64,000 nucleotides of DNA from an uncultured Chthonomonas sp. Its GTDB lineage: Bacteria > Armatimonadota > Chthonomonadetes > Chthonomonadales > CAJBBX01. The position numbers and the translations under genes were made by a program. This document shows positions 2,069 through 47,123 of the stretch, in pieces (the first letter of the stretch is position 1; each line of letters begins with the position of its first letter). The stretch covers positions 8,490-72,489 of the forward strand of contig CAISJD010000077.1 in assembly GCA_903885605.1 (NCBI GenBank), in the 5' to 3' direction. Under the pieces are notes generated by a model that was not told the origin of the DNA, ran no database searches, and saw only the letters and a program-made list of their open reading frames with translations.

Positions 2069-2069
2069 C

Positions 2070-6474: not shown

Positions 6475-6489
6475 CCCAAGGAGTCGCTC

Positions 6490-8942: not shown

Positions 8943-8944
8943 AC

Positions 8945-17560: not shown

Positions 17561-20287
17561 CTACCGCCGCCTCGCCCCGAATTCCCCGAGCGCTTCCTTC
17601 GTGAAGGCCGTCGTCACCACCCACTCGCCTCGGCCGTCGACCACCCGGCTTGGGTCCGTCTGCGCCTGCTTTCGCACGTCCGCCGGGCAGAGGCGTTTGG
17701 CGGCGTAGCAGGTCGCGCCCTCGCGCACGCATCGCCGGATCGCCTCCAGCGTCTCCGGGCTCACCTCCACGCCGCACAGGATGATCGTCTTAACGCCCGC
17801 CAGCATCGCGTATCCGACCCGGTGGTCGTAGATCGCCGTTCGCGGCGCGGGGACGTCGAACCGCCAGGCGTACCGGTCGTAGACGCCGCTGTTGGTGTTC
17901 ACCGCGCCGGGGTGCGTGGCGCCGCCGGTGAGCCAGTGCCATGCTTGCAGCCACTCGCGCGTCTCCGGCGTCGATTGCAGGTTCTCCGCGCCGTAGAGCG
18001 TGTTCCAGTAGCTGCCCGTGGCCTGGCCCCAGTCGCTGTCCGGGAAGCGGACCATGGCCACCTCGGGCGCGAAGTCGCGGCAGGGCTTTGTGCTGGGCGT
18101 GGTCGCCTGCTGCGCGATGTGGCGGCGCAGGACGGCGCCGTACTCCGACAGGTCGTACTGCGTGGCGCCATAGGGCGCGAGGCAGGTGGTGAACTCGGTG
18201 TAGACGTGGTCGACGCCCGCCGATCGCGCCAACTCCAGCGCCTGCCGGTACTCCGTGGCGGAGTGGCCGGGAAACTGGTCGATGTGCCAGAGGTCGGGGC
18301 TGAACCATAGCTCCGCGCCGTACTGCCTGGCCGCGCCCAGGGCCTGGGCCAGCACCACCGGGTGGATGTCCTCCTTGAGCAGCTTGGGGCAGAGGGTGAA
18401 GCCGGCGCGGGCCAACGGATGCCATAGCACTGGAAAGACGCTCTCCACCAGCGTCCGCGCGCCGTGGCTCCGGTTGGCGGCCGCCACGCGCCCCGCGGCC
18501 GTCACGAGCGCCTCGTAGGCCTGCGGCAGCGCCATGCCGGTGGTCTCCACGAGGTAGGGCTTGCGATGCACCGGGTCCGTCAGGCCCGAGTAGGCGTTCC
18601 GCGACATCTGCATGTGCTCGCCCTCGTCGTAGACCACTCCCTCGAAGAGGCCGGTGGCCGACGCGGCGTCCAACGCCTCCGGCTCAATGTCCCACCGGTG
18701 GCATCCGCCCTCGGCTGCGAAGCGGTTGCGGCCCTCCTTGTCGAGCGCCTCGGGCGCCCAGTTGGAGGTCTCGTTGTTCAGCGCGAAGCGCGTGCGCGTG
18801 GCCCTGCAAAAGGCGAGCAGCTCGCGGAACTCGCCGTTGTCGAGCTGCGCCGGGTCCAGGTGGAACTGGAGGAAGTTGACGCCCAGGTCGCGCAGGGAGA
18901 GGAGCAGCGCCGGGCTGTCGACGTAGCCCAGGTCCACGCCCTGCAGCCCTCGACGCACCGTGCTGAAGGGGCCCACGGTGTCGAACAGCTCGCTCACGCG
19001 CTTCTGGCCGGGACCGAGCAGCGCCAGCGCGGTGGTGTGGGCCTGCACGTTGCGCGAACCGGGCAGGGCGGCCTCCAGGCTGTAGAGGCCCCGTGGCAGG
19101 GGCTTCAGCCGCGCCGTGGCCCTGTCGCCGGTCAGGGCGAGGAGAAGCCGCTGGACCTCGCGCCGCCGCCAGTCCCGCACGGTGACGACGCACTTGCGGG
19201 CGAAGCCGGGCGCCGTATCCCAGACGCGCACCTCGATGGGCAACGCCCGGCCGGCCGCGGCCCGGTCGGCGCCGTCGGCCACGCGCACGCTCGTGGTGGC
19301 CGTCACGGGCCGCGCGCCGGCGTCGGCGGTGTGGCGGATGTCGATGGGCCAGTAGGCGATGTGGAGCCAGTCGGGGCATGGCGGGCGGACGGTCTGCAGG
19401 GGCTTCGCGCCGTCGACGCTCCAGTGCGGGCCGCTGACGAGCCGACCGATCTCGCGGGCTCCGGCGAGGGCGCGCAGGTCCAGGGCCAGCCTCTGTGCCG
19501 GGGCGGGCGAGAAGTCATACGCCGCGCGGAAGCCCGTCGCCGCGGCGTCGATGCGGCACCGCAGGGCGTCTCCGTGGCCGTCGGAGATGCGCCAGCCGGC
19601 GGCGGGGCTCAGGTCGCGGAGACCTCCGGGGCCGTCAAGCGTTACGCGGTCGAAGGTGACCGAGCCGCCTGGGTCGCGCCCGGTGCGCTTTTGGTCGATG
19701 CGGATGCGTACCCGCGCCACGCGCTCCAGGTCGCACCCCGCCGCGCCGATGGGCATCCGGCCCGCGGACCGCAGGTCGATGGTGTGTACGGCCGGTGCGC
19801 CCGTCTCGCCCAGCTGCAGCGTTGGGTCGGTTCGCTCCGCGCAGAAGTAGCCCGTCGAACGGCCCTCGGCGTCGAGGCACTCAAGGTAGAGCCACTCAAA
19901 CCGCCGGGCGTCCGAGGTGGCGATCGTCAGCGTGCGGGCCGCCATGGGTGGGTCCACGGCGCGCTCGACCACCATCCAGCAGTTCTCGGGCTGGCGGACG
20001 ACCTCGGACGCCACCTCGACGCGTACGCTGTTCCGACCCGCCCGCAGGCCGCTCGTCAGGCGGCGTACATCGGCCCAGGGTCGGTCGCCCACGTCCACGG
20101 CGACGCCGTTGATCCAGACGCGGTAGCGGTCCTGAGCCGTGGTCCGCAGCAGGGCGTGCGTGGGGCGGGAGGGTAGCTCCAGCGTCGCCTCGAAGCGGGC
20201 CGTGGCGCGCATGGCGTCGGGCGGCGGCGCGATCCAGACGGGCAGCGGCCCGACGGCAACCAGCAGCAGGGAGTTCACAGCGTTCAT
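17561..20287 (-). CDS. Large secreted hypothetical protein (908 aa), glycoside-hydrolase-like architecture
   Basis: N-terminal hydrophobic leader. Jelly-roll-like segment (DRYRVWINGVAVDVG...GRNSVRVEV). Central region with TIM-barrel-like alternation. C-terminal KTIILCGVEVSPETLEAIRRCVREGATCY resembles the GATase1-like middle domain of GH42 enzymes. Codon usage is consistent with neighbours. Confidence 0.65.
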   Translation of the reverse strand: MNAVNSLLLVAVGPLPVWIAPPPDAMRATARFEATLELPSRPTHALLRTTAQDRYRVWINGVAVDVGDRPWADVRRLTSGLRAGRNSVRVEVASEVVRQPENCWMVVERAVDPPMAARTLTIATSDARRFEWLYLECLDAEGRSTGYFCAERTDPTLQLGETGAPAVHTIDLRSAGRMPIGAAGCDLERVARVRIRIDQKRTGRDPGGSVTFDRVTLDGPGGLRDLSPAAGWRISDGHGDALRCRIDAAATGFRAAYDFSPAPAQRLALDLRALAGAREIGRLVSGPHWSVDGAKPLQTVRPPCPDWLHIAYWPIDIRHTADAGARPVTATTSVRVADGADRAAAGRALPIEVRVWDTAPGFARKCVVTVRDWRRREVQRLLLALTGDRATARLKPLPRGLYSLEAALPGSRNVQAHTTALALLGPGQKRVSELFDTVGPFSTVRRGLQGVDLGYVDSPALLLSLRDLGVNFLQFHLDPAQLDNGEFRELLAFCRATRTRFALNNETSNWAPEALDKEGRNRFAAEGGCHRWDIEPEALDAASATGLFEGVVYDEGEHMQMSRNAYSGLTDPVHRKPYLVETTGMALPQAYEALVTAAGRVAAANRSHGARTLVESVFPVLWHPLARAGFTLCPKLLKEDIHPVVLAQALGAARQYGAELWFSPDLWHIDQFPGHSATEYRQALELARSAGVDHVYTEFTTCLAPYGATQYDLSEYGAVLRRHIAQQATTPSTKPCRDFAPEVAMVRFPDSDWGQATGSYWNTLYGAENLQSTPETREWLQAWHWLTGGATHPGAVNTNSGVYDRYAWRFDVPAPRTAIYDHRVGYAMLAGVKTIILCGVEVSPETLEAIRRCVREGATCYAAKRLCPADVRKQAQTDPSRVVDGRGEWVVTTAFTKEALGEFGARRR

Positions 20288-20901
20288 GGCATGCCTCCGT
20301 TCCGCGTCGTCGCCTCAGCCATCACGATCCGCAGGGACCCGCCCAGGTCGCCGTCGCCGCGCACGGTGAGGTCGGCGTGGCGGGCCGAGGGCAGGACGTA
20401 GCGGCGGGCCATGGGCTCCACCTGCTCGGCGAACTGGCGTCGCACGTCGGCCTCGGTTCGCTCACGCTCGCGGGTGTCCCGGTCGATGCGGCGCCGCAGG
20501 CACAGCTCCAGCGGGCAGTCGACGAAGACGCGCAGGTCCGCGACGGCCCGCATCTCGGGCCAGTGGAGCGCCAGGATGCCCTCGGCCACCACCACCGGCG
20601 CGGGCTCCACGTGCGTCACCTCGCCGGTGCGGGTATGCGTGGCGAACGAGTAGACCGGCGTGTCGATCCCGCTCCCCGCCGCCAGGCCCCGCAGGTGGAG
20701 CGTGGCCATCTCGTGGTCGATGGCCGCCGGGTCGTCGAAGTTGGTCAGCGCCCGCTCGGCCATGGGCAGGTGCGCGAGGTCTCGGTAGTAGTTATCGACG
20801 CACAGGGGCGCGCATCGCCCGAGCCATGCCTCTGCCAGCCCCGCAGCCAGCGCGCTCTTGCCCGACCCGCTGACCCCCGCGATGAGCACGACGAACGCCA
20901 T
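20284..20901 (-). CDS. udk: Uridine kinase
   Basis: Start at the internal Met (ATG 20901). P-loop IAGVSGSGKS, NFDDPAAID, VVVAEGILAL, RRIDRD. The stop overlaps the ATG of the 908-aa gene (ATGA). The upstream 137 codons of the listed ORF were rejected. Confidence 0.85.
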   Translation of the reverse strand: MAFVVLIAGVSGSGKSALAAGLAEAWLGRCAPLCVDNYYRDLAHLPMAERALTNFDDPAAIDHEMATLHLRGLAAGSGIDTPVYSFATHTRTGEVTHVEPAPVVVAEGILALHWPEMRAVADLRVFVDCPLELCLRRRIDRDTRERERTEADVRRQFAEQVEPMARRYVLPSARHADLTVRGDGDLGGSLRIVMAEATTRNGGMP

Positions 20902-26812: not shown

Positions 26813-26895
26813 GGGATCTCTCCTCGGTCCATTTGGCGGCGGGCAGGGCGGCCCCGCTCAGGCATGTGGTACCACAATGGCAGGGGGATGCCACC

Positions 26896-28005
26896 ATGCG
26901 ATCCGCGGATGCGGCCGTCTTTGTCGGGTGCGATAGGGGATTGGAGGTGCGGTCGCTGCCGGTGCTGCCTCCGGCGGAGGGGCGCGCCGTGGTGGACCTC
27001 GTGGCCTCCGGCGTCTGTGGGACCGACGTCCACATCCTGGAAGGGGCCATCGGCATACCCGCGCCGTTCATCCCCGGCCATGAGTTCCTCGGCCGTGTGG
27101 CGGAGCTGGGAGACGGCCCGCACGTCGACTGCCTGGGCAGGCCGGTGAAGCCCGGCGACCTCGTGGCCGTGAACGTCATCGAGCCCTGCGGCTCCTGCCT
27201 GCTCTGCGCCACGGGCGGTGCGGCCTCTTGCATCAACCTTATGGCGTCGCTCAGTTATATCGCCGACCCGGATGTGGCCCCGCACCTGCACGGCGGCTAT
27301 GCCGAGGCGACCAACTGCCCCACGCGCTACCTGCAGCTCCTGCCGCCCGGCCTCGAACCCATGGCGGCCTCCGCCTTCCTTTGCGCCGGGCCCACCGTGG
27401 TGCGCGCCATGGCCTACGCGGGCGGCGTGCGGCCGGGCGAGCATGTGGTGGTGATCGGCTCCGGTCCCGTGGGCCTCTTCGGCGTGCTCTGGGCCGCCCG
27501 GCACGGCGCCGCCTCCGTCACGATGATCGGCTCCTCGTCCAACCCGCTTCGCGTTGAGCTCGCCCGTGCGCTGGGCGCCACCACCACGCTGGACATCCGC
27601 GCCTCTTCGGCGGCAGAGCGCCTCGACGCCGTCCGCACCGCGACAGGCGGCGTGGGCGCGGACCTGGTGATCGAGGGCGCAGGTGCGCCTGACGCCTTCG
27701 TCGAGGGTCTCTCGCTGCTCCGTCCGCGCGGCCGGCTGGCGCTGGCCGGGCAGTACTCCGACCGCGGAACGGCCGCGATCGCGCCGCAGCTGCTGACGTG
27801 CAACGCGCTGCAGCTCTTCGGCTCGGCCCAGTTCACCGCCGAGGACCGTGAAGCCTGCTTCCAGTTCCTTCTCTCGGTCCGGGACGCATGGCCCACCATC
27901 CTGCGTTTGGTGACGCATCGGGCGCCTGTGCGCGAGGCCGCGTCGCTGATGGAGGCCGCGCGCTCCGGCGAGGCGGTCAAGGCCCTGCTGGTGGCGGAGG
28001 GTTAG
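26896..28005 (+). CDS. Zinc-dependent medium-chain alcohol dehydrogenase family protein
   Basis: Start at internal ATG 26896. GVCGTDVH and GHEFLG zinc motifs, structural-Zn Cys cluster (CGSCLLC), Rossmann VIGSGPVG. The upstream 96 codons of listed ORF 26608.. overlap the divergent hydrolase and were rejected. Confidence 0.8.
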   Translation: MRSADAAVFVGCDRGLEVRSLPVLPPAEGRAVVDLVASGVCGTDVHILEGAIGIPAPFIPGHEFLGRVAELGDGPHVDCLGRPVKPGDLVAVNVIEPCGSCLLCATGGAASCINLMASLSYIADPDVAPHLHGGYAEATNCPTRYLQLLPPGLEPMAASAFLCAGPTVVRAMAYAGGVRPGEHVVVIGSGPVGLFGVLWAARHGAASVTMIGSSSNPLRVELARALGATTTLDIRASSAAERLDAVRTATGGVGADLVIEGAGAPDAFVEGLSLLRPRGRLALAGQYSDRGTAAIAPQLLTCNALQLFGSAQFTAEDREACFQFLLSVRDAWPTILRLVTHRAPVREAASLMEAARSGEAVKALLVAEG

Positions 28006-28009
28006 GCCG

Positions 28010-28345
28010 ATGACCACCGAACCGCCGGATGGGCCGTGGGTGCAGGTGCTGCTGCAGGGCCGATACGTGGGCGACCCGTCTACCACGATCGGCATCCTGG
28101 AGGACGAGGACCCCGCGTTCGTCTACCTGCGCCTGTCGGACGGCGAGACCATGGTGCTGCCCAAGCAGAATATCGCCCGGATCGTCGCCCTGCCGCCAAG
28201 GGATGATCGACCAGCCGACCGGCTGGTGCGGCCGGCCGAGGCGCCGGATGACACGGATCGGCTGGTCCGGCCGGTCGGCTTCGCGCCTGACGATGAGGCG
28301 CAACTGGCCCGCCCCGCCGCCGTACCGGAGGAGAAGCGACGATGA
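28010..28345 (+). CDS. Small hypothetical protein (111 aa): beta-rich N-domain plus repeat-bearing tail
   Basis: ATG 8 nt after GGAGGG, only 4 nt after the ADH stop. Its stop overlaps the GRE ATG (ATGA). The N-terminal ~55 aa (VQVLLQGRYVGD..IGILEDEDPAFVYLRLSDGETMVLPKQNIARIV) has an Sm/SH3-like alternation. The tail carries DRLVRP twice. Confidence 0.5.
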   Translation: MTTEPPDGPWVQVLLQGRYVGDPSTTIGILEDEDPAFVYLRLSDGETMVLPKQNIARIVALPPRDDRPADRLVRPAEAPDDTDRLVRPVGFAPDDEAQLARPAAVPEEKRR

Positions 28346-30492
28346 GCCTGCCGCAGCACCTTCCCGCCGAACAGCTGGCCGCTGCCACGCTGGCCCTGCA
28401 GGATGCCCGCCCGCACTATGTCGCATCGCTCTGGAGGGCCGCCTCGTTCGCCGAGACGGAGGGGCAGCCCATGCCGCTGCGGCGCGCCCACGCTCTCAAC
28501 GCTGTCCTGTGCCAGTGCGAGTTGCCCCAGACGCGCGGCGAGCTACTGGTCGGCTCGGGCCTGGGCCGCCTGGCCGAGAGCGCCGACGGCCCGGCGCTTG
28601 CCGCCGCCTCCGAGGCGCTGAGGCCCTTCGCCGGACGCCACTTCGGCACGCACTCCGACCACGTCGCGCCGGACTACGCCTCGTTGCTGCGCGACGGCCT
28701 CGGCGGGCTCATGGTCCGCACTCGCGCCGCCGCAGCCGCGCTGCCCCGGGAGCCCTTCACCGCGTCGGAGAGGCACACCTTCCTCGCGGCGGTTATGGTG
28801 GCGCTCCAGGGAGCGCAGGCGTTCGTCGTCCGCTGGGCCGATGCCGTCTCAGCCGCGGACCATGGCCCCTTCGCCGACCTCGCCGCCAGGCAGGAGGCCA
28901 TGCTGCGCCGACTGGCCGTAGAGCCGCCGCGGACCTTCCATGAGGCCTTGCAACTCACCCTCCTCCTGCATCACATGATGCAGCTCGACGACCGCTACGC
29001 CATGGCCCTGGGCCGCGCCGACCAGTTCCTCTGGCCCTTCCTGCGCGATGATCTTGCAACCGGTCGGCTGGACGAGGGCGAAGCCCAGGCCCTCACGGAT
29101 GCCTTCGTCGCCAAGCTCGTGCATCGGGGCGACATCCAGAACGTCTGCGTGGGTGGCCTGACGCCGTCGGGTAAGGACGCCGTGAACCCGCTGAGCCTTA
29201 TGCTCGTCCGCTCCGTGGGCAAGATCAGGCGTCCCGGTCCCAACCTCACCGCCCGCATCGCCTCTTTCTCGCCGGATGCCTTCGTGCGGGCCTGCGCCGA
29301 GTGCGTGCGGACGGGCATCGGCTTCCCTGCCGTCTACAACGACGACGTGCAGGTGCCGGCCCTCGCTGATCAGGGCTACGCGCTGGAAGACGCCCGCGAC
29401 TACTGCTTCGTCGGCTGCATCGAGGCTCACATCCAGGGCAAGCAGGCGCCCTGGGCCGACAGCCGGTTCAACCTGCTGCGCTGCGCCGACCTCGCGCTCC
29501 GCGGCGGCATCGACGGCCTGACGGGCGAGCGCGCCGGCCCTGACACCGGCGAACCGGCCGACTGGGACGCCTTCTATGCCGCGTTCGTTCGCCAGATGGA
29601 CCACGGTCTCGACGCCCACTGCGGTTGGATCTGCGACATGGAGCGGGAGGCGGACGCCCGCGCATTCGACCTGGCCTCGCCCCTCCTCAGCGCCCTGACG
29701 GCCGACTGCATCGAGCGCGGGCTGGACATCAACGACGGCGGCGCCCGGTATGAGGCGAACCATGGCGTGGCGGGCATGGGCATCGGCTCCGTGGCCGATA
29801 CGCTGGCCGCCGTGCGCCGCTTCGTCTACCGGCAATCGCGCTGGACGCTGCCGGAACTGCGCGAGATGCTCGACGCCGACTTCGTGGGTTTCGAGGCCGA
29901 GCGGGCCGTGATGCTGCGCGAGGCGCCCAAGTACGGCAACGACGACGAGGAGGTGGACGGCCTTGCCGTGCAGGTGGCCGCCGACTTCGGCGCCTCGCTC
30001 CTTCGCCGCCGCCTGCCGCGCGGGGGCCGCTTCTGGGGCCTCATGGCCGCGAACGTGCAGAACGTGGCTGCAGGGCTGGAGGTGGGCGCCACGCCCGACG
30101 GCCGCAAGTCGCGCGAGCCCCTCAGTGACGCCGCGTCGCCCTCCTTCGGCCGCGACCGGAACGGACCCACCGCCGTGGCGCGCTCGGTGGCCAAGCTCGA
30201 CTACAGGCTGGCTCCCGGCGGCAACGTGGTCAACATGAAGTTCCACCCCTCGGCGCTGGCCGGTGACGAGGGCGTGGCGGCGCTTGCGGCCCTGATCCGC
30301 ACTTGCTTCGGGCTGGGCGGCGTGCAGCTGCAATTCAACACGGCGGGGGTGGAGATGCTGCGGGCGGCGATGGAGAAGCCACAGGACTACGCCGACCTGG
30401 TAGTCCGCGTGAGCGGCTTCTCGGCCTACTTCACGCGCCTGGACCGCGCCGTGCAGGAGGACGTGCTGGCCCGAACCGAGCATGTTTTCTGA
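28342..30492 (+). CDS. Glycyl radical enzyme (PFL2/dehydratase-eliminase type), short 716-aa form
   Basis: C-terminal glycyl radical fingerprint VVRVSGFSAYFTRL (Gly codon 30415-30417). Cys-loop FVGCIE (Cys 29416-29418, Glu at +2), as in diol-dehydratase/choline-lyase-type GREs. The Cys-to-Gly spacing of ~333 aa matches the family as I recall it. Confidence 0.8.
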   Translation: MSLPQHLPAEQLAAATLALQDARPHYVASLWRAASFAETEGQPMPLRRAHALNAVLCQCELPQTRGELLVGSGLGRLAESADGPALAAASEALRPFAGRHFGTHSDHVAPDYASLLRDGLGGLMVRTRAAAAALPREPFTASERHTFLAAVMVALQGAQAFVVRWADAVSAADHGPFADLAARQEAMLRRLAVEPPRTFHEALQLTLLLHHMMQLDDRYAMALGRADQFLWPFLRDDLATGRLDEGEAQALTDAFVAKLVHRGDIQNVCVGGLTPSGKDAVNPLSLMLVRSVGKIRRPGPNLTARIASFSPDAFVRACAECVRTGIGFPAVYNDDVQVPALADQGYALEDARDYCFVGCIEAHIQGKQAPWADSRFNLLRCADLALRGGIDGLTGERAGPDTGEPADWDAFYAAFVRQMDHGLDAHCGWICDMEREADARAFDLASPLLSALTADCIERGLDINDGGARYEANHGVAGMGIGSVADTLAAVRRFVYRQSRWTLPELREMLDADFVGFEAERAVMLREAPKYGNDDEEVDGLAVQVAADFGASLLRRRLPRGGRFWGLMAANVQNVAAGLEVGATPDGRKSREPLSDAASPSFGRDRNGPTAVARSVAKLDYRLAPGGNVVNMKFHPSALAGDEGVAALAALIRTCFGLGGVQLQFNTAGVEMLRAAMEKPQDYADLVVRVSGFSAYFTRLDRAVQEDVLARTEHVF

Positions 30493-30534
30493 GTCGAAAG
30501 TCGAAAGTCGAAAGTCGAAAGTAGAAAGTGGGAA
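30493..30534. repeat. Heptanucleotide tandem repeat (GTCGAAA)x4 followed by two degenerate units (GTAGAAA, GTGGGAA)
   Basis: Read directly. Starts at the base after the GRE stop codon (TGA 30490-30492), in the convergent gap before the SDR gene. Confidence 0.9.
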
Positions 30535-34358: not shown

Positions 34359-36731
34359 TTACGGAGCCGCAACCGGAATTGCCGGCGCCTCGTCGATGAC
34401 CCAGTCACGCCACACCGGCCCCAGCCCGGCGGCCGCCAGGCGGATCACCCTCGCCGCCTCGGCGGTCGTCACGGGTCGATCCGGCTCGAAGAGCAGTGCT
34501 CCTGAGCGGTCGCGCGGGGCCAGCGCATCGAAGAGCAGGGGATCGATGGACCAGTGCCGGAGCGCCCTCGCCGCTTCGGCGAGCGCCGACCCCGGCTGCA
34601 GGTCCGGGTAGGCGAGCGTCCCCTCCGGCGCCTGCCAGCCCGTGAACGCCGCCAGCATCTCGGCAAGGCGGCCTCGCGTCAGGGTGTCTGACGGCGCGGC
34701 GGACGCGGAACCTCGCAGGGCGCAGCCGGCCCATCGGCGCACGGAATCGGGCGCGTCCGGCTCTCGCAGTAGCCGTCCGCGTAGCCAGTCCAGCAGGCGG
34801 ACGGCCTCGCCGGCAGTGGCGATCCCCCGCGGCTTCAGGGCGGCTGCCTCCAGCCCGCTCTTCGGCGTGGCCTTGGCCGGGGCAGGGCAGGGCCATGCGC
34901 CCCGTGCGGCCATCCACATGACAGGCGCATACCAGAGCGCGCCGCGGTCGAGGTCGGTGAACATATAGGTCAGGCAGGGCTCGCGGAGGCCGCCCGGCGA
35001 TCCGGCGCCGAGTCGCGCCGGTAGTCGGGGCTCTGGTCCGCGCCGCTTGAGCAGTTCCGCCTGGATCAGCCCCCTGGGCGCCGTGTGCGTGGTGACGCCG
35101 TGGCGGATGCAGACCGCCGCCGCCACGCCCGCCGCCGCGCCGAAGTGCATGCGGACCGGCTCCATGCGGTAGGTGCCGTACGCCACATGCGTCGCCGAGA
35201 TCGCCGTGGGCGTCAGGAGGTTGTCGATGCCGACGGGCGTCATGATGCGAAATGGGATCTGGTGCCACGGCGTGAGCTGCGGCAGGTAGAACTCGCCCTC
35301 GCCCATGTCGTCGTCGTCCCAGTTGGTCTTGGGGCGTACGGCGTGGCTGTCCATGGCGTAGTCGCCGATGCCGATGGCGTCGGGCCGCACCAGCTTGCGC
35401 GCGTTCAGGATGTCGGTCTCGTCCATCCGCACCGAGGCCTGGAAGCGCCTCGCCTCCCGCACGTAGAGCCCCTGGGTCCAGCCTTCGGTGTCGCGGTAGT
35501 CGTCCTCGGATAGCCCGATGTTGCGCTTCCCCTCGGCGGTTTGGATGAAGTAGAGATAGCCGAGGGCGTGCGCCCGGAAACCGGCTTCGATGCGTCGGCG
35601 TTCGGCGTACCCGGCGTCGGGGTAGGAGTAGTTCGTGCCCTGCAGGTCGCTGCCGTGGGGGTGCTGGTTGATCTCGTACTTGCGGTTCGGCAGTGTCCCG
35701 CTACTGGTGGCCCAGCTGACCTGCCACTTGGGCGCGTGGTCGTACTTAGTAGGGTCGTAGCCGTCGGGCCGTGGGATGGTCCTGTCGGCGCCGGGTCCGA
35801 AGTCCTTCACGGTCATCAGGTACGAGTAGGCCTGCAACCGCCGGTCGCCTGCGCCCGTGCTGCCGGGTAGCCGCGAGGCCGAACCCCTGTCGTAGTAGAT
35901 TACGCCGGCGTGCGGCTCCCGGACCGAACGCGGCTCGCGGCCTACCCGGTATCGAGCGCCGGCCCAGGCCGCCACATCGCCGCACTCCGTGGCGTCCACG
36001 ACGATCTTCGGCTCGAAGACGCACCGTCTGCCTGTGGCCACGGCCTCGGCGGCGACGCTGGTGATGACGCCGTTCCGCACACTCACTGCCACGGGCCGCA
36101 CCTCGCGATGGACCTCCAGCCGCGGTTCGGCCCAGATCAGCTCCTTCATGGCCTGGTGCGCCACTCGGGGCTCGTACTTCAGGCCCGTGGACGTTCTGTC
36201 GCCGTAGATCTCCTGCACGCGGTGGCGAAACTCCTCGAAGAAGCCCGAGGAGTGGTCCACCGATCGGATATCGCTGGCGCCCAGTCCGTTCACCGACATG
36301 CCGCCCAGCCTGCGGGTCTCCTCGACGAGCGCCACGTCGAGGCCGTACCGTGCCGCGACGACGGCCGCTGAGACGCCCGCGGTCGTGGCCCCGACGACCA
36401 GCACATCGCATCGCCGCCGCGTGGGCAACGGCGCATGGGTGCGCTCGATGTATGGGCGGCTTGTCGCTGCCGTGGAGCCTACCGGGCGCACCTCGTACCG
36501 GTAGGTCGTAGCGGGCGCGGCCCCGGCGTCGAGGAACCGCCCGGCGGCCTCGCTAACGGTGGCGATGACGACGCCGTCGCGCAGAACCTCGACCACGCCG
36601 GTGGCGCCCGGCGTCCAGAAGATGCGTACCTCGGCGCCGCTCTGTGCCGCGGCTTCCACAGCCGACGGCGCCGCTCCGGCGCCTGGGGGCCAGGCAAGGG
36701 CCGCGATGGCGATGAGATAGGCTCGGATCAA
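34359..36731 (-). CDS. FAD-dependent oxidoreductase, exported, with SLH-like C-terminal repeats
   Basis: Dinucleotide-binding CDVLVVGATTAGVSAAVVAARYGLDVALVEE. My preferred start is TTG 36731, 5 nt after GGGAGGTG, giving leader LIRAYLIAIAALAWPPGAGA; the listed GTG 36791 is also possible. The last ~200 aa contain segments resembling S-layer-homology repeats (FTDLDRGALWYAPVMWMAARG; TRGRLAEMLAAF; FEPDRPVTTAEAARVI). Confidence 0.7.
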   Translation of the reverse strand: MIRAYLIAIAALAWPPGAGAAPSAVEAAAQSGAEVRIFWTPGATGVVEVLRDGVVIATVSEAAGRFLDAGAAPATTYRYEVRPVGSTAATSRPYIERTHAPLPTRRRCDVLVVGATTAGVSAAVVAARYGLDVALVEETRRLGGMSVNGLGASDIRSVDHSSGFFEEFRHRVQEIYGDRTSTGLKYEPRVAHQAMKELIWAEPRLEVHREVRPVAVSVRNGVITSVAAEAVATGRRCVFEPKIVVDATECGDVAAWAGARYRVGREPRSVREPHAGVIYYDRGSASRLPGSTGAGDRRLQAYSYLMTVKDFGPGADRTIPRPDGYDPTKYDHAPKWQVSWATSSGTLPNRKYEINQHPHGSDLQGTNYSYPDAGYAERRRIEAGFRAHALGYLYFIQTAEGKRNIGLSEDDYRDTEGWTQGLYVREARRFQASVRMDETDILNARKLVRPDAIGIGDYAMDSHAVRPKTNWDDDDMGEGEFYLPQLTPWHQIPFRIMTPVGIDNLLTPTAISATHVAYGTYRMEPVRMHFGAAAGVAAAVCIRHGVTTHTAPRGLIQAELLKRRGPEPRLPARLGAGSPGGLREPCLTYMFTDLDRGALWYAPVMWMAARGAWPCPAPAKATPKSGLEAAALKPRGIATAGEAVRLLDWLRGRLLREPDAPDSVRRWAGCALRGSASAAPSDTLTRGRLAEMLAAFTGWQAPEGTLAYPDLQPGSALAEAARALRHWSIDPLLFDALAPRDRSGALLFEPDRPVTTAEAARVIRLAAAGLGPVWRDWVIDEAPAIPVAAP

Positions 36732-36794
36732 CTTGACACCTCCCGCCCGAGATGCGTAGAATCGGTATGCGCCCTGGAGGCGACGCGGCACGCC

Positions 36795-37280
36795 ATGGAT
36801 TTGTCACACTCCTGCATAGCTATCATACAGACCTCGCCACCCGCAGAGGCGCGGCCGGCCCCGTTCGCGCCTATCGCGGACAATACAGTCCTCTGCTGCT
36901 TCTTCAGCAGTGACACGGACCGGGACGCCTTCCTGCGCATATTGCGTGACGCCGCCGGCCAGGGCGCCCGGCTCGCCGACACGCTCGCCCATACGCATGA
37001 AGAGGCAGCGGCTGAGTGCGCCGCCCTCTTCGGCTCCGGCGACGAGGTCGAGGCCGTGACCGCCGCCGTCGCCTGGCGCGCGCAGGCCCTGAACCTCGGA
37101 TATCATACCTACCGCTTCAAGCAGGGGTACGGGCCCTACCGCAGCGCATGCATGATCGCCTTCAAAGAACTGACACCCGCGATCGCCCGTGAGAACCGCG
37201 ACGCGGCGCTGGCCGTGCTGGGACGCCGCCGTGATCGGTTGGCCGACCAGTTCGGACTGACCGGCGGCGGGACACTATAG
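36795..37280 (+). CDS. Hypothetical protein (161 aa)
   Basis: ATG 36795, divergent from the FAD oxidoreductase gene. Plausible composition (FFSSDTDRDAFLRILRDAAG..., YHTYRFKQGYGPYRSACMIAFKEL). No recognisable motif. The upstream part of listed ORF 36435.. was rejected. Confidence 0.4.
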   Translation: MDLSHSCIAIIQTSPPAEARPAPFAPIADNTVLCCFFSSDTDRDAFLRILRDAAGQGARLADTLAHTHEEAAAECAALFGSGDEVEAVTAAVAWRAQALNLGYHTYRFKQGYGPYRSACMIAFKELTPAIARENRDAALAVLGRRRDRLADQFGLTGGGTL

Positions 37281-37374
37281 GAACAGGCCGTAGCGCGCGT
37301 CTCCGTCCAGCGCGCGGCTCCCGGTCGGCGGACGGAGCCGGTGCGTACCGGGCCGTGCGCGGAAGGCGGGCGCC

Positions 37375-40300
37375 TTGAGACCCACAAGCAGCACTGGACT
37401 CTGCGCCCTGGTGGCCTTGCTGGGCGCCGCCGGGACCATGGGAGGCATCGGCCTGCCTCCGGCGCCTCCGGCAGATGTGCGTGCTGCGCTCCCTTCTGCG
37501 CCCATCGCACCCGATGCAGCGCGCTGGTGCGTGCCTCCCGCCGGGTCGCGTGCCGGCTCCAGCTGGCGGCTACGTCGCAGCTTCCGCCTGGTGGCCCAAC
37601 CGCGGCGGGCCCACCTAAAGCTGGAGGCGGCCCGCTCCGTTGAGGTACGCCTCAACGGCTCGCTGGCCTGCCGCGGCTCGGGCCTTACCGAGGTCGAGCT
37701 GCCGCCGGCGCTCCTCAGGACGGGAGCCAACGTGCTCACGGCCGAGCTCCGGGCCGGCGGGCCAGTCGCTTTCAGGCTCACCGTTGGGACCGCATCCGGC
37801 CGCACAGGCGAGATCGCGTCCGGTCGGAACGAGCGCTCCTCGCTGGAGGCGCCGCCCGGCTGGACGGCCCCCGACTACGATGATAGCGTTTGGCCCTCAA
37901 CGCGGCTAGGCGGCGTCTGGGATCGTCCGAAGCCCGTCGTTGCTGTTGCTCCTGTCTCCAGGCCGCCGGCGTCCGCGCTACGGCCCCGTGCGGCCGAGGA
38001 GGCTACCGACCTGCCGTCGGCGGATATGGATAGCGGCAGGATTATCCGCGCCTGGGAAGCCGGATCCCCGCCTGACCCATCGGGGCGCAAGGGCGAGGCC
38101 GGGACCAGGATGTGGCAGGTCACAGGCATACCGAGCCCTCTGGACCTGCGCGTGGTGGCGTCGGCCGGCTTCACGACGCTGCAGTCCGACAGTGACAGCC
38201 TCTCGACTGAAGAGAAGCGCCCGGCTGAGTGGGACTACTCGGCCGCCGAGGGGCAGGCCGCGGTGGCAGGCCGTTTTGGCTTCGATTGGAGCTACTACCC
38301 GCACTTCGCCTTTCCGCCCCTCTGGTATGATCGCGCCGCCTACACGCCCATCGAGTGCCGTGAGCACAACGAGATCGTCAGGGCCTTCTCACCGTGGGAC
38401 AGGCGGTTCGGCACATTCGTGAGCCGCGGCTACACGGCTCTGAGCGGCCGATTTCCGGCGTCACGGCTGCAAGCCCTCTGCGTCGGCATCCATGGTGACG
38501 GGGGCGAGGCCGGCCTGCCGACGGGTGCGCGCCTTGCCGAGCCAGGACAGCGTGACGACTGGCGCACCCGGTTCGGCAACCTGCATAGCCACGCGGGCTG
38601 GTGGTGCGCCGACCCGCAGGCTCGCGCAGCATTCCGGGAGGCGATGCTTCGGAAGTACGGTTCCTTGGCAGCTCTTCGGACCGCCTGGCGCCTGCCCCGC
38701 CTGACTGAGGACGAGATCGCATTTCCGGCTTCGCCGGCCGCAACGCGGAGCGGATGGCTCGACTTCGTGGAGTGGTACCTGGGCGGCGTCAGTTCGATGG
38801 CGGACTCGGTGCTACGCGTGGCGCGCCGCGCCTATCCCGCCACCGCGCTCATGCTGCCCGCCGGCTCGGGAGGCGATGACCCTCGTGACGGCAGCGACCT
38901 GAGTATGTTGGCCAGGGTGGCCGCCAGGCACGGGGCGGCCGTGCGCTCGGCCCATGGCGGGCTCTATCCCTTCGCCCGCAACCAGGCCACGATGCTGGGT
39001 CGCCTGGCATCGGCCTGCCGGTTCTACGGCGTCCCGCTGGTCGTTGAGCCCGCCGGCGATGTCACCGCCGACCGGCAGGTGACGCGCGTCTACGAGGCTG
39101 TGGCCCAGGGCGCCCAGGGGTTCGTCGACACGCCCTCGTCCATTGCGGCCGGCAGGGAGGTCTACTACCGCTACGGCAAGCACCTGCGAACCGAGAAGCG
39201 AGTCGTCGACGTGGCGATGCTCTGGCCTACCACGTCGCGCCTGCTGAAGCCCGATCAGCCCGCAACGCAGGTCTTTGAGCGGGGCTGTGCCATGATCCGG
39301 GACATCCTGGACTTCGATACCGTCGATGAGCGGCTGGTGGTCGATGGCGCCCTGAGCCGGTACCGTATGCTCGTCATGTGGGAAGGCCCGGTGTTCAGTG
39401 CCGGTACGTTGGCTGCGATTCGCAAGTGGGTGAACGACGGCGGCGTGCTGCTGGCCTACGACTTCGGCAAGGTGGAGACGCCCGAAGGTGACCAGTCCTG
39501 GCACCGGGAGATGCTCGGGCACGGCGGGCGCCTGGCCTCCGCGCGGCTGCGTCCGGTGTTCGATCTTCCCGCCGGCCGCGATATGCCCGCGTCGTACCGC
39601 ATCCCGGTCGGCGATCCGGCATGCTCCAGCTTCCTGGATGGCGACTGGTACCCCGCTGAGCAGGTCGGCCGAGCCGTGCGCCGGTGGACCGGGGCGCAGG
39701 CGTCCGTGCATCTGCCGCTCGACGCTCGAAAGCGCTGCCGGATCAGCCTGCGGGCTTCGGTACCGGCAGAGGCCCTTAGCAAGCGTCACAGGGTTCTCGT
39801 GAACGGGGTTGAGGTCGGCGCTCTCGACCTCGTGGGCGATCATCTCTACACCTTCATCACGCCTGCCGAAGCTGTCACGGGCCGTACGGTCTCCACCTTG
39901 ACCATTGAGTCGGAGACCCTCGAACCCTCGGCCGGCGATCTGCGAGCGCTCGGCGTCTGGGTCACGTACATCCAGGTCGACCCTGCGGTCGGTCCGTTGG
40001 CCCCCGAACCATCGTCCCTGATGGGACGGATGGAGACCGAGATCGACACTGATCGCCTGAAGGCCGATTGGGCCAAGCCTATGGGGAAGGGCTGGTCGAT
40101 CTACTTCCCGGGGCGTCGTGCCCAGTTGGCGGGCTACCTCGAGGCCGTGCGCTACCTCTGCTACCACCTCTCCGACCTTGCGCCCGGCACACGCGACGCG
40201 ATCCCTGTGGACGATGCCTGGGACGGCGTCTACGCCACGCTGATGACCGACAAGGTGCTCTACCTCAACGAGGGCCCGCGTGATGTGCCGCGCACGGTGA

Positions 40301-40845
40301 TCCTCTCGCCGGCCTCGATGGCCGCATGGCCCAACGTTCAGGCGCCGACGGAGAATACGCACCAGCTGACGGTCACAGCCAACAGCATCGTTGGCCTGAA
40401 CCTGGCGCCGCCCCAGCCTGAGATGCTGCTGGAGTGCGAGGGCTTCCTCGGCTTAGGCGCCCTGAAGCCTTCCGAGGGCGCCGCCTTCAGTCCCGGGCAG
40501 GGCGCCACCCACGTCCTGGTGCCGCGCGGCGGATCGGCCTCGACACGCTTCCGGTGCGACGCCGAGGGATCCTACAGGGTACACGTCAGGGCTGTGCGGC
40601 GTGGATTGCCGGCGGAAGCAGTGGTGCTCCTCGACGGGCGTCCACTGACGCCGGTAGCCCGCTCTCCGAGGCCGGGGATGCTTACTCGGTGCGCCGGGGC
40701 CGTAGAACTGAAGAAGGGCGTCCACAGCCTCACCATCAAGCCGCTGAAGGGCGAGGATGTCCGGGTCGACTACGTCGTGCTCAGCGCCGATCGCACCGTG
40801 TCGGGCTACGCCTTCGCCGTGCGGGAGCCGTCGGCACGGCGCTGA
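37375..40845 (+). CDS. Very large secreted hypothetical protein (1156 aa), GH42-like architecture
   Basis: TTG start and hydrophobic leader (GLCALVALLGAAG). Jelly-roll-like N-domain (RSVEVRLNGSLA...GANVLTAEL). Central FGFDWSYYPHFAFPPLWYD... region. YRMLVMWEGPVFSAGTLAAIRKWVNDGGVLLAYDFG resembles the GH42 middle (GATase1-like) domain. C-terminal beta-sandwich-like segments. Confidence 0.65.
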   Translation: MRPTSSTGLCALVALLGAAGTMGGIGLPPAPPADVRAALPSAPIAPDAARWCVPPAGSRAGSSWRLRRSFRLVAQPRRAHLKLEAARSVEVRLNGSLACRGSGLTEVELPPALLRTGANVLTAELRAGGPVAFRLTVGTASGRTGEIASGRNERSSLEAPPGWTAPDYDDSVWPSTRLGGVWDRPKPVVAVAPVSRPPASALRPRAAEEATDLPSADMDSGRIIRAWEAGSPPDPSGRKGEAGTRMWQVTGIPSPLDLRVVASAGFTTLQSDSDSLSTEEKRPAEWDYSAAEGQAAVAGRFGFDWSYYPHFAFPPLWYDRAAYTPIECREHNEIVRAFSPWDRRFGTFVSRGYTALSGRFPASRLQALCVGIHGDGGEAGLPTGARLAEPGQRDDWRTRFGNLHSHAGWWCADPQARAAFREAMLRKYGSLAALRTAWRLPRLTEDEIAFPASPAATRSGWLDFVEWYLGGVSSMADSVLRVARRAYPATALMLPAGSGGDDPRDGSDLSMLARVAARHGAAVRSAHGGLYPFARNQATMLGRLASACRFYGVPLVVEPAGDVTADRQVTRVYEAVAQGAQGFVDTPSSIAAGREVYYRYGKHLRTEKRVVDVAMLWPTTSRLLKPDQPATQVFERGCAMIRDILDFDTVDERLVVDGALSRYRMLVMWEGPVFSAGTLAAIRKWVNDGGVLLAYDFGKVETPEGDQSWHREMLGHGGRLASARLRPVFDLPAGRDMPASYRIPVGDPACSSFLDGDWYPAEQVGRAVRRWTGAQASVHLPLDARKRCRISLRASVPAEALSKRHRVLVNGVEVGALDLVGDHLYTFITPAEAVTGRTVSTLTIESETLEPSAGDLRALGVWVTYIQVDPAVGPLAPEPSSLMGRMETEIDTDRLKADWAKPMGKGWSIYFPGRRAQLAGYLEAVRYLCYHLSDLAPGTRDAIPVDDAWDGVYATLMTDKVLYLNEGPRDVPRTVILSPASMAAWPNVQAPTENTHQLTVTANSIVGLNLAPPQPEMLLECEGFLGLGALKPSEGAAFSPGQGATHVLVPRGGSASTRFRCDAEGSYRVHVRAVRRGLPAEAVVLLDGRPLTPVARSPRPGMLTRCAGAVELKKGVHSLTIKPLKGEDVRVDYVVLSADRTVSGYAFAVREPSARR

Positions 40846-45294: not shown

Positions 45295-46053
45295 TCAGGC
45301 CCCCTTGCCCTTGTCGTCGGGCTCAGGCTTGAGCAGCGTCATCTTCATCTGAACCGTGACCGGGCCGTAGGAGGTGGGCAGGTCCTTGATGGAGCCCTCG
45401 GCCTTGGCGATCACGCCGTCGGCGGGGCGCAGCCAGAATGTGAACTCGAAGACCGCCTTGCCGCCCTGATCGTCGGTGTCGGCGCTGGCCAGCTGCTTGA
45501 CCTTCCAGAGCGTGACGGTCTCCACCGTCTCGGCCGCGACGAAGGTCAGCTTCGGCGTGATCTTCTTGCCCTTGACCGCCGGGTTCACGATCTCAACGGT
45601 CCAGGTGTCGCCCGGCTTGACGGCCTTGTCGCTGAGCCTCGGCTCGTTGAGGATCGCCATCAGGTGCTCGATCTCGGGGGCCATCAGGCCCGCTTCGGCG
45701 GCGCCGCGCTCGTACTTGATGATCTTGCCGGTCTTGTCGAGGGTCAGGATCGCGTCGGTCTGCGGCGGGATATCCTGCTCCTGGCCGCCGACCACCACCT
45801 TGCCGCCCTGGTCGGCGGAGAGGACGATGATGTCGCCGTTGGTCTTCTTGATCTCCTTGACGGAGGTCTTGATGGTTCGGACGGCGGTCACATCGTTGCC
45901 CATCATGTTCGCCGCGATCTCGACGCGGTGGCGGACAACATCGCCTTCCTTGTACAGGCGGGCCAGGGTCAACGGGGTGTCATCGGCGCCGGCGGCCCCG
46001 AGGCTGAGGATCGCGATGGCGGCCCCGGCAAGGATGGTGCGCTGAAGCATCAT
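45295..46053 (-). CDS. Hypothetical secreted protein (252 aa), Lys-rich
   Basis: Start at internal MM (46053). Signal peptide MMLQRTILAGAAIAILSLGAAGA. Alternating beta pattern. KPGDTWTVEI motif. Lys-rich tail (PEPDDKGKGA). Confidence 0.6.
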   Translation of the reverse strand: MMLQRTILAGAAIAILSLGAAGADDTPLTLARLYKEGDVVRHRVEIAANMMGNDVTAVRTIKTSVKEIKKTNGDIIVLSADQGGKVVVGGQEQDIPPQTDAILTLDKTGKIIKYERGAAEAGLMAPEIEHLMAILNEPRLSDKAVKPGDTWTVEIVNPAVKGKKITPKLTFVAAETVETVTLWKVKQLASADTDDQGGKAVFEFTFWLRPADGVIAKAEGSIKDLPTSYGPVTVQMKMTLLKPEPDDKGKGA

Positions 46054-46078
46054 GGCTCTCGAACTCCTTGGTTTGCGG

Positions 46079-47092
46079 CTACTTGCGCCGCTTGGGTGTG
46101 GGCTTCGCCTTGGTCTTGGCCGTCGTATCGGCCTTGGCGCTGGGCGGCAGGAGGTTGACATAGATGGCCGCCTGCACGGCGCTCTTCATCTCGGCGGGGG
46201 TATCCGGCGTGGCCGGTTCGCCCACCGTCTTTTCGGTGATGTCCGCACTGAGGATCAGGAGGCCCGACGTTACAAGGCCTCGTGCCTTGTCGAAGGTGTA
46301 TCCTCCGTCGCCCTTGATGACGCCGGTTCGGGTCTTCTTCACAGCCGCGGGGTCGGTGGTCGGCTTCTTCTTCGCGTCGAGCGACTGCTTCACGTCCATG
46401 CTGAAGATGGACTTCAGGAAGACAGGCGTCTTCGCGGTGATCTCGGTCGGCAGGGAGAGCCGCTTCGGAAGCTCGGCCTTCAGCTCGTCGGATGCCGGGT
46501 ACGAGACGACCGGGCGGTACTTGACGGCGACCATCTCGCCGCTGAAGCTCGCCTGGCTTCCCTGGCCGCCCAGGAGTTCACTTGTGTAGGGCCACTGGTC
46601 GCCGGGGGCCACCGCATGCTCAGGGAAGACCACCGGGAAGAGGAGGCAGTAGAGCCGCTTGGGATCGACGCCGGGGATCGACACGGCGAAGGGCAGCGGC
46701 AGGCCTGGCTTCACGCTGACGACGGCGCCTGACTTGGCGAACCGGACCACCTGATCGAGGACCTTGTGCGCGTCCTCCTCAGGTACGGGGAGGGGGATGC
46801 CCGCCATCTCGGCCTCGGCAGTCTCTACTCGCAGCGTCATCTCGGCCGACCCATCGGGCCGTACCGCGGTGGGCGTCGCCTTGTACACGATAGTGAGAAC
46901 CCCGTCGATCTGCACGGGCTCCGGGTTGTCGAAGAGCGGAATGGCGCCGGTCAGGTGCGCCACCAGGCTGTAGCGCAGTGGCTGTGCGGCCGTCCATCGG
47001 TACGCCAATGGGCGCAGCTGGGCCTGCGGCGCGGTCGGACGCGGCAAAGCCCCCAGTGCGAGCAGGTGCATGCAGAGCAGAAGAGCGGGCAA
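46079..47092 (-). CDS. Hypothetical secreted protein (337 aa), Lys-rich tail
   Basis: Leader MPALLLCMHLLALGALP. APGDQWPYTS motif similar to the KPGDTW of the next gene. C-terminal KADTTAKTKAKPTPKRRK. Confidence 0.6.
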   Translation of the reverse strand: MPALLLCMHLLALGALPRPTAPQAQLRPLAYRWTAAQPLRYSLVAHLTGAIPLFDNPEPVQIDGVLTIVYKATPTAVRPDGSAEMTLRVETAEAEMAGIPLPVPEEDAHKVLDQVVRFAKSGAVVSVKPGLPLPFAVSIPGVDPKRLYCLLFPVVFPEHAVAPGDQWPYTSELLGGQGSQASFSGEMVAVKYRPVVSYPASDELKAELPKRLSLPTEITAKTPVFLKSIFSMDVKQSLDAKKKPTTDPAAVKKTRTGVIKGDGGYTFDKARGLVTSGLLILSADITEKTVGEPATPDTPAEMKSAVQAAIYVNLLPPSAKADTTAKTKAKPTPKRRK

Positions 47093-47123
47093 GTGTTCCT
47101 CCCGATAGGGAATGACGTCGGCG

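Follow-up and report, generated by a model that had tools for sequence, protein, structure and literature searches.

Within a 64,000-nucleotide stretch of DNA from an uncultured Chthonomonas sp. (contig CAISJD010000077.1 of assembly GCA_903885605.1, positions 8,490 to 72,489; hereafter the window), three consecutive genes encode a zinc-dependent alcohol dehydrogenase (ADH), a small protein (the small open reading frame, or small ORF) and a short glycyl radical enzyme (GRE). No gene for the radical S-adenosylmethionine (radical-SAM) activating enzyme, or activase, lies nearby. The reading that we favour, with moderate confidence, is that the locus encodes a functional, dehydratase-like 1,2-eliminase which belongs to a widespread clade of short GREs, is activated in trans and is coupled to its own dedicated Zn-ADH.

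Two Pfam domains were found in the GRE, a PFL-like domain (residues 105-564) and a Gly_radical domain (PF01228, residues 595-698, 102 bits). A preliminary description of this DNA had pointed to the Gly loop RVSGFSAYF and the Cys loop GCIE. Both are present, with Gly692, Cys359 and Glu361 as their key residues, and in an alignment of 27 relatives H107, C359-I-E361, D373 and R689-V-S-G-F-S-A695 are invariant. The motifs DH, RYAMAxGRxDQ, VGCIE, PW[AS]D and VVRVSGFSAY[FY] persist across 80 loci at identities down to 38%, and GC[IV]E occurs in essentially all same-clade members among these loci. Alignment with glycerol dehydratase (GD) put the catalytic Cys and Gly at the positions that had been proposed for them, with a spacing, counted from the alignment, of 333 residues vs 330 in GD. 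The protein has the RVxG[FYW] Gly loop and the catalytic Cys at the centre of a ten-stranded beta/alpha barrel that mark GREs, and in addition the CXE motif of the 1,2-eliminases.

An AlphaFold2 (AF2) model built on the 27 relatives had a pLDDT of 90 and a pTM of 0.92. The confident fold superposes on GD, propanediol dehydratase (PD), CutC and HypD, the enzymes with which a structural comparison had been suggested, at TM-scores (TM) of 0.87-0.89 in a Foldseek search. GD and PD reached TM 0.88-0.89 at 29-30% identity (1r8w, TM 0.89, 30%), and about 50 GRE chains, other eliminases and isomerases included, fell between 0.82 and 0.89. Among solved structures the best sequence match was GD (1R8W, 397 bits), followed by the PDs 9RCO and 5I2A, PflD and CutC.

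The NCBIfam model of the PFL2/glycerol dehydratase subfamily, TIGR01774, gave 449.5 bits against a cut-off of 678.2 and covered model positions 156-785 only. The highest equivalog scores were 365 bits for PflD (cut-off for E. coli PflD, 1109), 359 for HypD, 340 for HpfG and 325 for CutC; together with HpsG, IAD, HPAD and pyruvate formate-lyase (PFL), the equivalogs ranged from 135 to 365 bits against cut-offs of about 1000-1150. Because every equivalog score falls far below its cut-off and the solved relatives are about 30% identical, the GRE belongs to no characterised clade. Judged by its sequence, it is a genuine PFL2-type GRE in no named family.

The source annotations of homologues read "formate C-acetyltransferase", and the gene for a formate-tetrahydrofolate (THF) ligase (FTHFS) lies 23 kb away, which would suit a pyruvate or 2-ketoacid formate-lyase that feeds formate to this ligase. 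However, the Cys loop VGCIE contains a single Cys rather than the adjacent Cys-Cys pair of PFL, the PFL model TIGR01255 gives 135 bits against a cut-off of 994, and PFL structures rank far below the eliminases. The probability of a formate-lyase is close to negligible in our view, and the "formate C-acetyltransferase" labels on short-GRE genes are almost certainly wrong.

The Glu two residues after the Cys had been read as the arrangement of 1,2-eliminating GREs. This agrees with a 2026 review (PMC13450708), according to which all known C-O, C-N and C-S GRE eliminases keep the CXE motif. The same review assigns catalytic roles in GD to Glu435 and His164, the latter as the proposed acid protonating the leaving hydroxyl, and the short GRE has a His and an Asp placed as in GD. 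It groups the characterised GREs into six C-O eliminases, CutC, three C-S lyases, three isomerases, decarboxylases and X-succinate synthases, besides PFL/TdcE, ribonucleotide reductase and aminoacyl radical enzymes, and points to whole GRE clades still without validation. None of its classes matches the short-GRE clade. Our literature search found no characterisation of this clade or of a GRE-plus-Zn-ADH module.

Because the stop-to-stop frame permits at most 731 aa, the shortness of the GRE is not an annotation artefact. The preliminary description had put the deficit at 70-130 residues and located it at the N-terminus. The protein is indeed short, its Cys-Gly spacing is normal and the loss lies before the Cys loop, but it consists of two gaps of about 54 and 15 aa rather than of one truncation. 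GRE residues 32-72 align with GD residues 35-75, and residue 98 onward aligns with GD residue 155 onward, so that the N-terminal helical region is shorter by about 54 aa between residues 72 and 98. The second gap, of 15 residues, extends from a helix ending at Lys258 to the QNV strand at residue 266 and is the same in five independent pairwise alignments (GD, two PDs and two CutCs). Residues 258-265 are coil in the AF2 model. Across the family, the segment before the QN strand measures 6-14 residues vs 21-25 in GD, PD and CutC, and the deletion in this putative cap-helix segment amounts to 9-15 aa. The 2026 review describes a conserved GRE dimer interface formed by N-terminal helices and a structurally conserved cap helix between beta2 and beta3. 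In HypD, a short alpha-helix lies between beta2 and beta3 and carries the substrate-contacting Ser334, shortly followed by Asp339 and Phe340. From the review and the HypD description we infer where the cap helix lies; the alignments suggest that the cap-helix segment is shortened in the short-GRE family.

The GD pocket residues His281, Ser282, Tyr339 and Tyr640 are replaced, by alignment, with Tyr219, Ala220, Ile265 and Ala569, and PD has Phe344 at the position of GD Tyr339. We take Ser282, Tyr339 and Tyr640 of GD to be the ligands of the third hydroxyl of glycerol. Because these positions are Ala220, Ile265 and Ala569 here, so that the polar ligands of the glycerol C3-hydroxyl are missing, the substrate is probably not glycerol. 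The catalytic apparatus for diol dehydration is kept, while the specificity pocket is apolar by alignment and probably larger; it appears compatible with a diol bearing an apolar substituent.

The short GRE has many relatives. We searched 5.8 billion proteins and scanned species-representative genomes, which gave 568 confirmed matches, the best 80 of which were examined. In the protein search, at least 120 clusters at 90% identity matched the GRE at 47-98% identity, nearly all of them 660-740 aa long; the few named clusters among the matches listed were from Chthonomonadales, Armatimonadota and Lentisphaeria. The best 80 of the 568 species-representative matches all fall in the short-GRE clade and come from Armatimonadota, Planctomycetota/Phycisphaerae, Lentisphaerota/Victivallales, Chloroflexota/Anaerolineae, Abditibacteriota, one bin labelled Gemmatimonadetes, and Clostridia; many of them are gut or rumen Clostridia members at 38-43% identity. 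The median length from the first Met at 80 loci is 716 aa. The clade is thus present in at least 80 species and probably in hundreds.

The closest relative among the matches is a lake metagenome-assembled genome (MAG) labelled Chthonomonas sp. (locus L005), whose GRE is 92% identical. Compared with the L005 orthologues, dN/dS is 0.10 for the GRE, 0.12 for the ADH and 0.28 for residues 1-63 of the small ORF product; the GRE is under strong purifying selection and is not a relic. The window sequence recurs in lake and freshwater metagenomes and sits on a scaffold of 146.9 kb assembled from a lake metagenome (ENA ERZ18645250, BUCK21-1_SAMEA6872882 scaffold_24). Metatranscriptome contigs of low depth, 90-99% identical, span the junction of the ADH gene and the small ORF and parts of the GRE gene, which suggests that the three genes are transcribed, although DNA carry-over could also give such contigs.

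The partner dehydrogenase contains the Pfam domains ADH_N and ADH_zinc_N. A comparison of its sequence with textbook motifs of the medium-chain dehydrogenase/reductase (MDR) family revealed Cys41, His62, Glu63 and the Glu of GGYAE as candidate catalytic-zinc ligands, besides a four-Cys structural-zinc site. It looks like an enzyme of the threonine/sorbitol/2,3-butanediol dehydrogenase type rather than a classical Cys-His-Cys ADH. No NCBIfam match came near its cut-off; the best were IolM (127 bits, the top match, where the cut-off is 450), "HpnZ-proposed", Tdh and AdhP. The best PDB match was 1VJ0, an uncharacterised Thermotoga protein.

The pairing of an eliminase with a Zn-ADH, which the preliminary description had considered logical, is real and is kept across phyla. 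We clustered the ORFs of 82 non-redundant loci, 80 of which carry the GRE. The recurring families were the GRE (80 loci), the Zn-ADH (about 45 of the 82 by tblastn, 40 by clustering), a canonical activase (30) and an AraC regulator divergent from the GRE (19). The ADH gene adjoins the GRE gene in Armatimonadota, Planctomycetota, Phycisphaerae, Victivallis and Clostridia; ADH-GRE pairs also occur on the closed Armatimonadota chromosomes OY970325.1 and OY781964.1. The order in Clostridia is a divergent AraC gene followed by GRE-activase-ADH. Armatimonadota, Planctomycetota, Lentisphaerota and most Chloroflexota have ADH-GRE, with stop and start codons often overlapping and no activase within 10 kb. 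Beyond the ADH, the activase and the AraC regulator, no neighbour was frequent enough in this clustering to define a pathway. HI0933-like flavoproteins, solute-binding lipoproteins, GFO/IDH/MocA oxidoreductases, glycogen genes, glycoside hydrolase (GH) family 38 enzymes, class II aldolases, FGGY kinases and FucI-like proteins are sporadic neighbours, and GH2, GH30, GH38, GH78 and GH123 enzymes and sugar transporters vary between loci. The HI0933-like flavoprotein gene lies directly 3' of the GRE gene at the Armatimonadota-type loci L008, L010, L013 and L022, but not in the window. Because only the ADH, the activase and the regulator are conserved around the GRE and the module looks self-contained, a small, common, freely diffusing substrate sensed by the AraC-type regulator is favoured.

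The preliminary description had also stated that the 64 kb contain no CxxxCxxC radical-SAM ORF, and this holds: the motif is absent from every coding-like ORF of the window, and a tblastn search with the activase of locus L022 gave nothing at E<1 in the window, in the 8.8 kb to its left (L089) or in the 5.6 kb to its right (L090). The absence is not confined to the present locus. Nearly all Armatimonadota, Planctomycetota, Lentisphaerota and Chloroflexota members are without an activase gene within 10 kb, and their Gly loop is identical to that of orthologues with an adjacent one. In about 30 Clostridial loci, a canonical activase (GPGIRTTVF.GC.L.C.WCHNPE) is encoded directly 3' of the GRE. 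The sole non-Clostridial exception is L022, with the activase gene 1.3 kb upstream of the GRE gene; this activase scores 324 bits on TIGR02494 (PFLE_PFLC) against a cut-off of 174. The missing local activase is a habit of the lineages outside Firmicutes and not a defect of this locus. By far the most likely arrangement would be an unlinked activase gene elsewhere in the genome and activation in trans, as in E. coli, where TdcE is activated in trans by PflA. A stand-alone, orphan activase gene does occur in a similar metagenomic contig (L087); this contig was rejected as a relative of the window, its pterin-binding protein being only 37% identical to that of the window. The named proteins among the best 120 homologues of the L022 activase come from Phycisphaerae, Planctomycetes and Chloroflexi. 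It is extremely unlikely, in our estimate, that closed Armatimonadota genomes would lack any activase of the PFL activating enzyme (PFL-AE) type and that another enzyme would install the glycyl radical.

Because several short-GRE paralogues occur per genome (L001 and L002), a shared activase would be fitting. Such paralogues lie in tandem or close to one another in other Armatimonadota. In L002 (10001-14319) the second copy has a divergent Cys loop, SCVE, and the Gly loop RVAGYSAYF, and in L001 (1-1218 and 10001-12067) the second copy stands beside GH2 and sugar ABC transporter genes. On the 3.25-Mb chromosome of L088 (10001-13516), an activase gene is followed by a short GRE called as two genes (569 and 149 aa), which may reflect a frameshift or a true separation of the barrel from the glycyl radical domain; at 26% identity, the L088 GRE was rejected as a relative and belongs to a different family.

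The integrity of the genes, the fold, the catalytic motifs, the purifying selection, the conserved pairing with the ADH and the activase genes of the Clostridial loci are observed. Activation in trans in the organism studied here, elimination as the chemistry, the substrate and the direction in which the ADH works are inferred. In the proposed mechanism, a PFL-AE-type radical-SAM activase encoded elsewhere would install the radical on Gly692. The radical would move to Cys359. The substrate, a vicinal diol or a related alcohol with a beta leaving group, would lose a hydrogen from its carbinol carbon to the thiyl. Glu361 would deprotonate the hydroxyl, and His107, together with Asp373, would aid the departure of the leaving group. 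The carbonyl product may then be reduced by the partner ADH, which would act as an NAD(P)H sink; alternatively, the ADH may make the diol from a hydroxy-carbonyl compound, and both roles are possible. Candidate substrates are 1,2-propanediol, ethylene glycol and 2,3-butanediol, which would come from the fermentation of deoxy-sugars and glycans.

Several observations weigh against this proposal. No activase gene was found in the roughly 78 kb covered, which reach about 37 kb to the upstream side and about 39 kb to the downstream side of the GRE gene, and no Armatimonadota or Lentisphaerota occur among the named matches in the best 120 homologues of the L022 activase, most of which are unnamed. 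Both findings, the latter as regards Armatimonadota, would also be expected if the GRE were a non-functional or non-radical relic in a lineage that lost its activase, or if it had acquired a radical-independent role, and cultured Chthonomonas is an aerobe. However, such a relic would be hard to reconcile with the dN/dS of the GRE, with Gly and Cys loops that are invariant in phyla without an adjacent activase, with the retained translational coupling and strong Shine-Dalgarno sequence, and with the transcript fragments. The same arrangement is found in four phyla, and loss of function would not preserve it. We therefore consider a relic very unlikely.

The other adverse points concern chemistry and substrate. 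Judging from its motifs, the ADH is of the polyol or secondary-alcohol type and no classical aldehyde reductase; a ketone or hydroxy-ketone would suit it better than a simple aldehyde would. The clustering of loci revealed no conserved transporter, kinase or aldolase that would constrain the substrate, and the case against glycerol depends on our assignment of the ligands of its third hydroxyl in GD. Furthermore, the GRE isomerases YbiW, PflD and HplG are equally distant from the short GRE (26-28% identity), which leaves some probability for ring-opening chemistry. The GRE might thus be an isomerase or a ring-opening lyase that acts on a glycan-derived cyclic or polyhydroxylated compound, with the ADH handling a keto-sugar product or precursor; YbiW and PflD act on 1,5-anhydro-alditol phosphates. 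Such a function would suit an ADH that is closer to polyol, threonine and inosose dehydrogenases than to aldehyde reductases, the GH2, GH30, GH38, GH78 and GH123 enzymes and sugar transporters often encoded beside family members, the similarity to PflD and YbiW, which in both fold and sequence roughly equals that to the dehydratases, and a shortened cap segment that could admit a bulkier substrate. However, no kinase, phosphatase, phosphotransferase system or aldolase gene adjoins the GRE gene in a conserved manner, a sugar would be an odd fit for the apolar residues (Ala, Ile, Ala) at the positions of the polar GD ligands, GD and PD match best in sequence, and the glycoside hydrolase neighbours vary by locus in saccharolytic genomes. 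We regard this alternative as unlikely, and prefer the 1,2-eliminase.

Compared with known systems, the short GRE most closely resembles GD (Clostridium butyricum DhaB1; 1R8W/1R9D), which is its best match in both sequence and fold. The Gly loop, the CXE Cys loop, His164/His107, Asp447/Asp373 and the Cys-Gly spacing correspond, and both enzymes are coupled to an alcohol dehydrogenase for the carbonyl product, as proposed for the short GRE. The short GRE differs from GD in being 71 residues shorter (about 54 aa in the N-terminal helical region and 15 aa in the cap-helix segment), in its Zn-MDR partner, which in GD is the Fe-type DhaT, and in the lack of an adjacent activase gene in its lineage. 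PD (Roseburia inulinivorans, 5I2G; also 9RCO) is similarly close (TM 0.88, 29-30% identity), with the CXE motif and the His in common and an apolar residue at the GD Tyr339 position (Phe in PD, Ile here). However, PD is about 100-130 aa longer and has a His-Ser pair (GHSISPGRFDQ) where the short-GRE family has RYAMALGRxDQ. The genes of PD belong to microcompartment loci and have an activase gene beside them. In contrast, neither an activase homologue nor a microcompartment shell gene was found in the window: a tblastn search with a PduA sequence gave a best E value of 0.14, and no shell domain was found among the annotated ORFs.

YbiW and PflD, the C-O lyases of 1,5-anhydroglucitol-6-phosphate and anhydromannitol-6-phosphate, are likewise PFL2-type GREs of carbohydrate catabolism and the shortest characterised members (PflD, 765 aa), with 27-28% identity and TM 0.86-0.89. 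The conserved context of the short GRE is an ADH gene rather than genes that handle sugar phosphates, and its score on the PflD model is far from the cut-off. E. coli TdcE resembles the short GRE in having its activase encoded elsewhere (PflA), which is only proposed for the short GRE; TdcE differs in being a close PFL paralogue with a known substrate. The short GRE would be a new variant among GRE 1,2-eliminases, with a reduced N-terminal region and cap segment, a Zn-MDR partner and an activase unlinked outside Firmicutes. In a bolder version, it would be a distinct short GRE type with a truncated N-terminal helical region, no cap helix and an open active site, which carries out a new radical reaction on a glycan-fermentation alcohol with an obligate polyol-type Zn-ADH partner and an unlinked, shared activase in four non-Firmicute phyla; we hold this version only tentatively.

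The coordinates of the locus are given in the table below.

Table. Features of the ADH-small ORF-GRE locus (window coordinates)
Feature	Position	Strand	Basis
ADH gene; Zn-dependent medium-chain dehydrogenase, 369 aa	26896-28005	+	ORF list, Pfam
Small ORF, 111 aa, lineage-restricted	28010-28345	+	ORF list; GGAGG 8 nt upstream
Short PFL2-type GRE, 716 aa	28342-30492	+	Pfam, NCBIfam, alignments, AF2 model, Foldseek
Divergent intergenic region, 83 nt; presumed operon promoter region	26813-26895		Lies between a beta-lactamase-family gene (minus strand) and the ADH gene
His107	28660-28662	+	Aligns with GD His164; invariant in 27 relatives; DH pair in nearly all 80 loci
Cys loop G-C359-I-E361; predicted thiyl-radical Cys and CXE Glu	29413-29424	+	Alignment, family conservation
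Asp373	29458-29460	+	Aligns with GD Asp447; PW[AS]D motif kept family-wide
Gly loop R-V-S-G692-F-S-A-Y-F; predicted glycyl radical site	30406-30432	+	Pfam, conservation
Eight-residue loop, residues 258-265; shortened putative cap-helix segment	29113-29136	+	Pairwise alignments, AF2 coil

The three genes are as tightly coupled as had been described. In the raw sequence, the junction between the ADH gene and the small ORF reads TAG-gccg-ATG, a 4-nt gap, and the small ORF and the GRE gene overlap by ATGA. A Shine-Dalgarno-like GGAGG lies about 8 nt 5' of the starts of both the small ORF and the GRE gene, and, as expected of real genes in this genome (70% GC), third codon positions are rich in GC in all three frames. 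No sigma-70 promoter consensus was found 5' of the ADH gene, a negative that is uninformative for this phylum; no convincing terminator consensus was found at the locus, and no Rfam family in the 64-kb window. Directly 3' of the GRE stop codon, a near-perfect tandem repeat of the heptamer AGTCGAA (5.4 copies, 30492-30529) fills the convergent gap. The repeat is only degenerate in L005, and a duplicated copy was seen in one metatranscriptome contig.

The small ORF product had been taken as a member of the operon, but it is not conserved and is confined to this genus-level lineage. No Pfam, NCBIfam or PDB match was found for it. Its N-terminal portion of about 63 aa is conserved, and its tail is of low complexity and rich in Pro, Asp and Arg. 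The only two database homologues are 99% and 88% identical and come from Armatimonadota MAGs. The version in L005 has 66 aa, is 75% identical over residues 1-63 and does not have the low-complexity tail. The small ORF is absent at all other ADH-GRE junctions. It is no core component and probably represents a genuine, young gene of this lineage. A role as a GRE small subunit was rejected as a general feature, because the product contains neither cysteines nor Fe-S motifs, which sets it apart from the Fe-S small subunits of HPAD and BSS, and is found in this lineage only.

Elsewhere in the window, the preliminary description had noted a fucosidase and a fucose-isomerase-like operon. Both are present, and their link through fucose and propanediol to the GRE is circumstantial. 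The operon (6475-10363) encodes a class II aldolase, an FGGY sugar kinase and an L-fucose-isomerase-like protein and is followed by a photolyase gene; scattered around it are genes for a GH29 fucosidase, a GH51-like arabinofuranosidase, GH2 and GH38, and a GH106 gene lies just left of the window. The whole looks like a route of deoxy-sugar or glycan catabolism, from which lactaldehyde or propanediol could arise.

A contrast between an O2-sensitive GRE and a neighbourhood with a photolyase and FAD oxidases had also been drawn. The photolyase and the FAD oxidoreductase are present, but the contrast carries little weight, because an anaerobe-style C1 cluster lies in the same window. This cluster (1244-5153, corresponding to L089 10001-13910) encodes a MeTr-like pterin-binding protein (Pterin_bind/CdhD), a MetF-type methylene-THF reductase, a Cys-rich DUF5981/MetV-like protein and FTHFS, a set that we take to belong to anaerobic C1 metabolism. 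The 814-aa "FAD oxidase" (34362-36803) is a FAD_oxidored protein (PF12831); the name means FAD-dependent oxidoreductase, and there is no evidence of O2 use. The source scaffold and the closest MAG have record names similar to those of an oxygen-stratified-lake dataset, which suggests that both may come from such lakes.

The 8.8-kb left extension (L089) encodes GH106, a beta-helix protein, an ABC ATPase, a PmbA/TldD pair and, beside this pair (L089 1-3166), a second Zn-ADH with the Pfam architecture of the operon ADH. In the right extension (L090 1-2490, about 67.1-69.6 kb in window coordinates), genes for a SPASM radical-SAM protein, a 170-aa ORF product and NTP_transf_5 look like a peptide-maturation cassette. 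The radical-SAM protein was rejected as the GRE activase, since it is a SPASM-type maturase next to NTP_transf_5. Several large coding-like ORFs of the window, at 37294-40842, 17564-20314, 59801-61906 and 45298-48350 (1183, 917, 701 and about 300-400 aa), are without a Pfam domain.

GREs carry out difficult anaerobic chemistry, and newly assigned clades have revealed pathways such as those from choline to trimethylamine and those of hydroxyproline, isethionate and anhydro-sugars. The short-GRE clade, whose members range over lake Armatimonadota, Planctomycetota and gut and rumen Clostridia, is a tractable target for enzyme discovery and overturns nothing known. Through the conserved ADH, activity could be followed in a coupled NAD(P)H assay, and the cognate activase from the Clostridial loci could be used to activate the enzyme heterologously. 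Should the reduction of the N-terminal helical region and of the cap-helix segment prove true, the short GREs would also be a test of which structural elements a GRE can do without.

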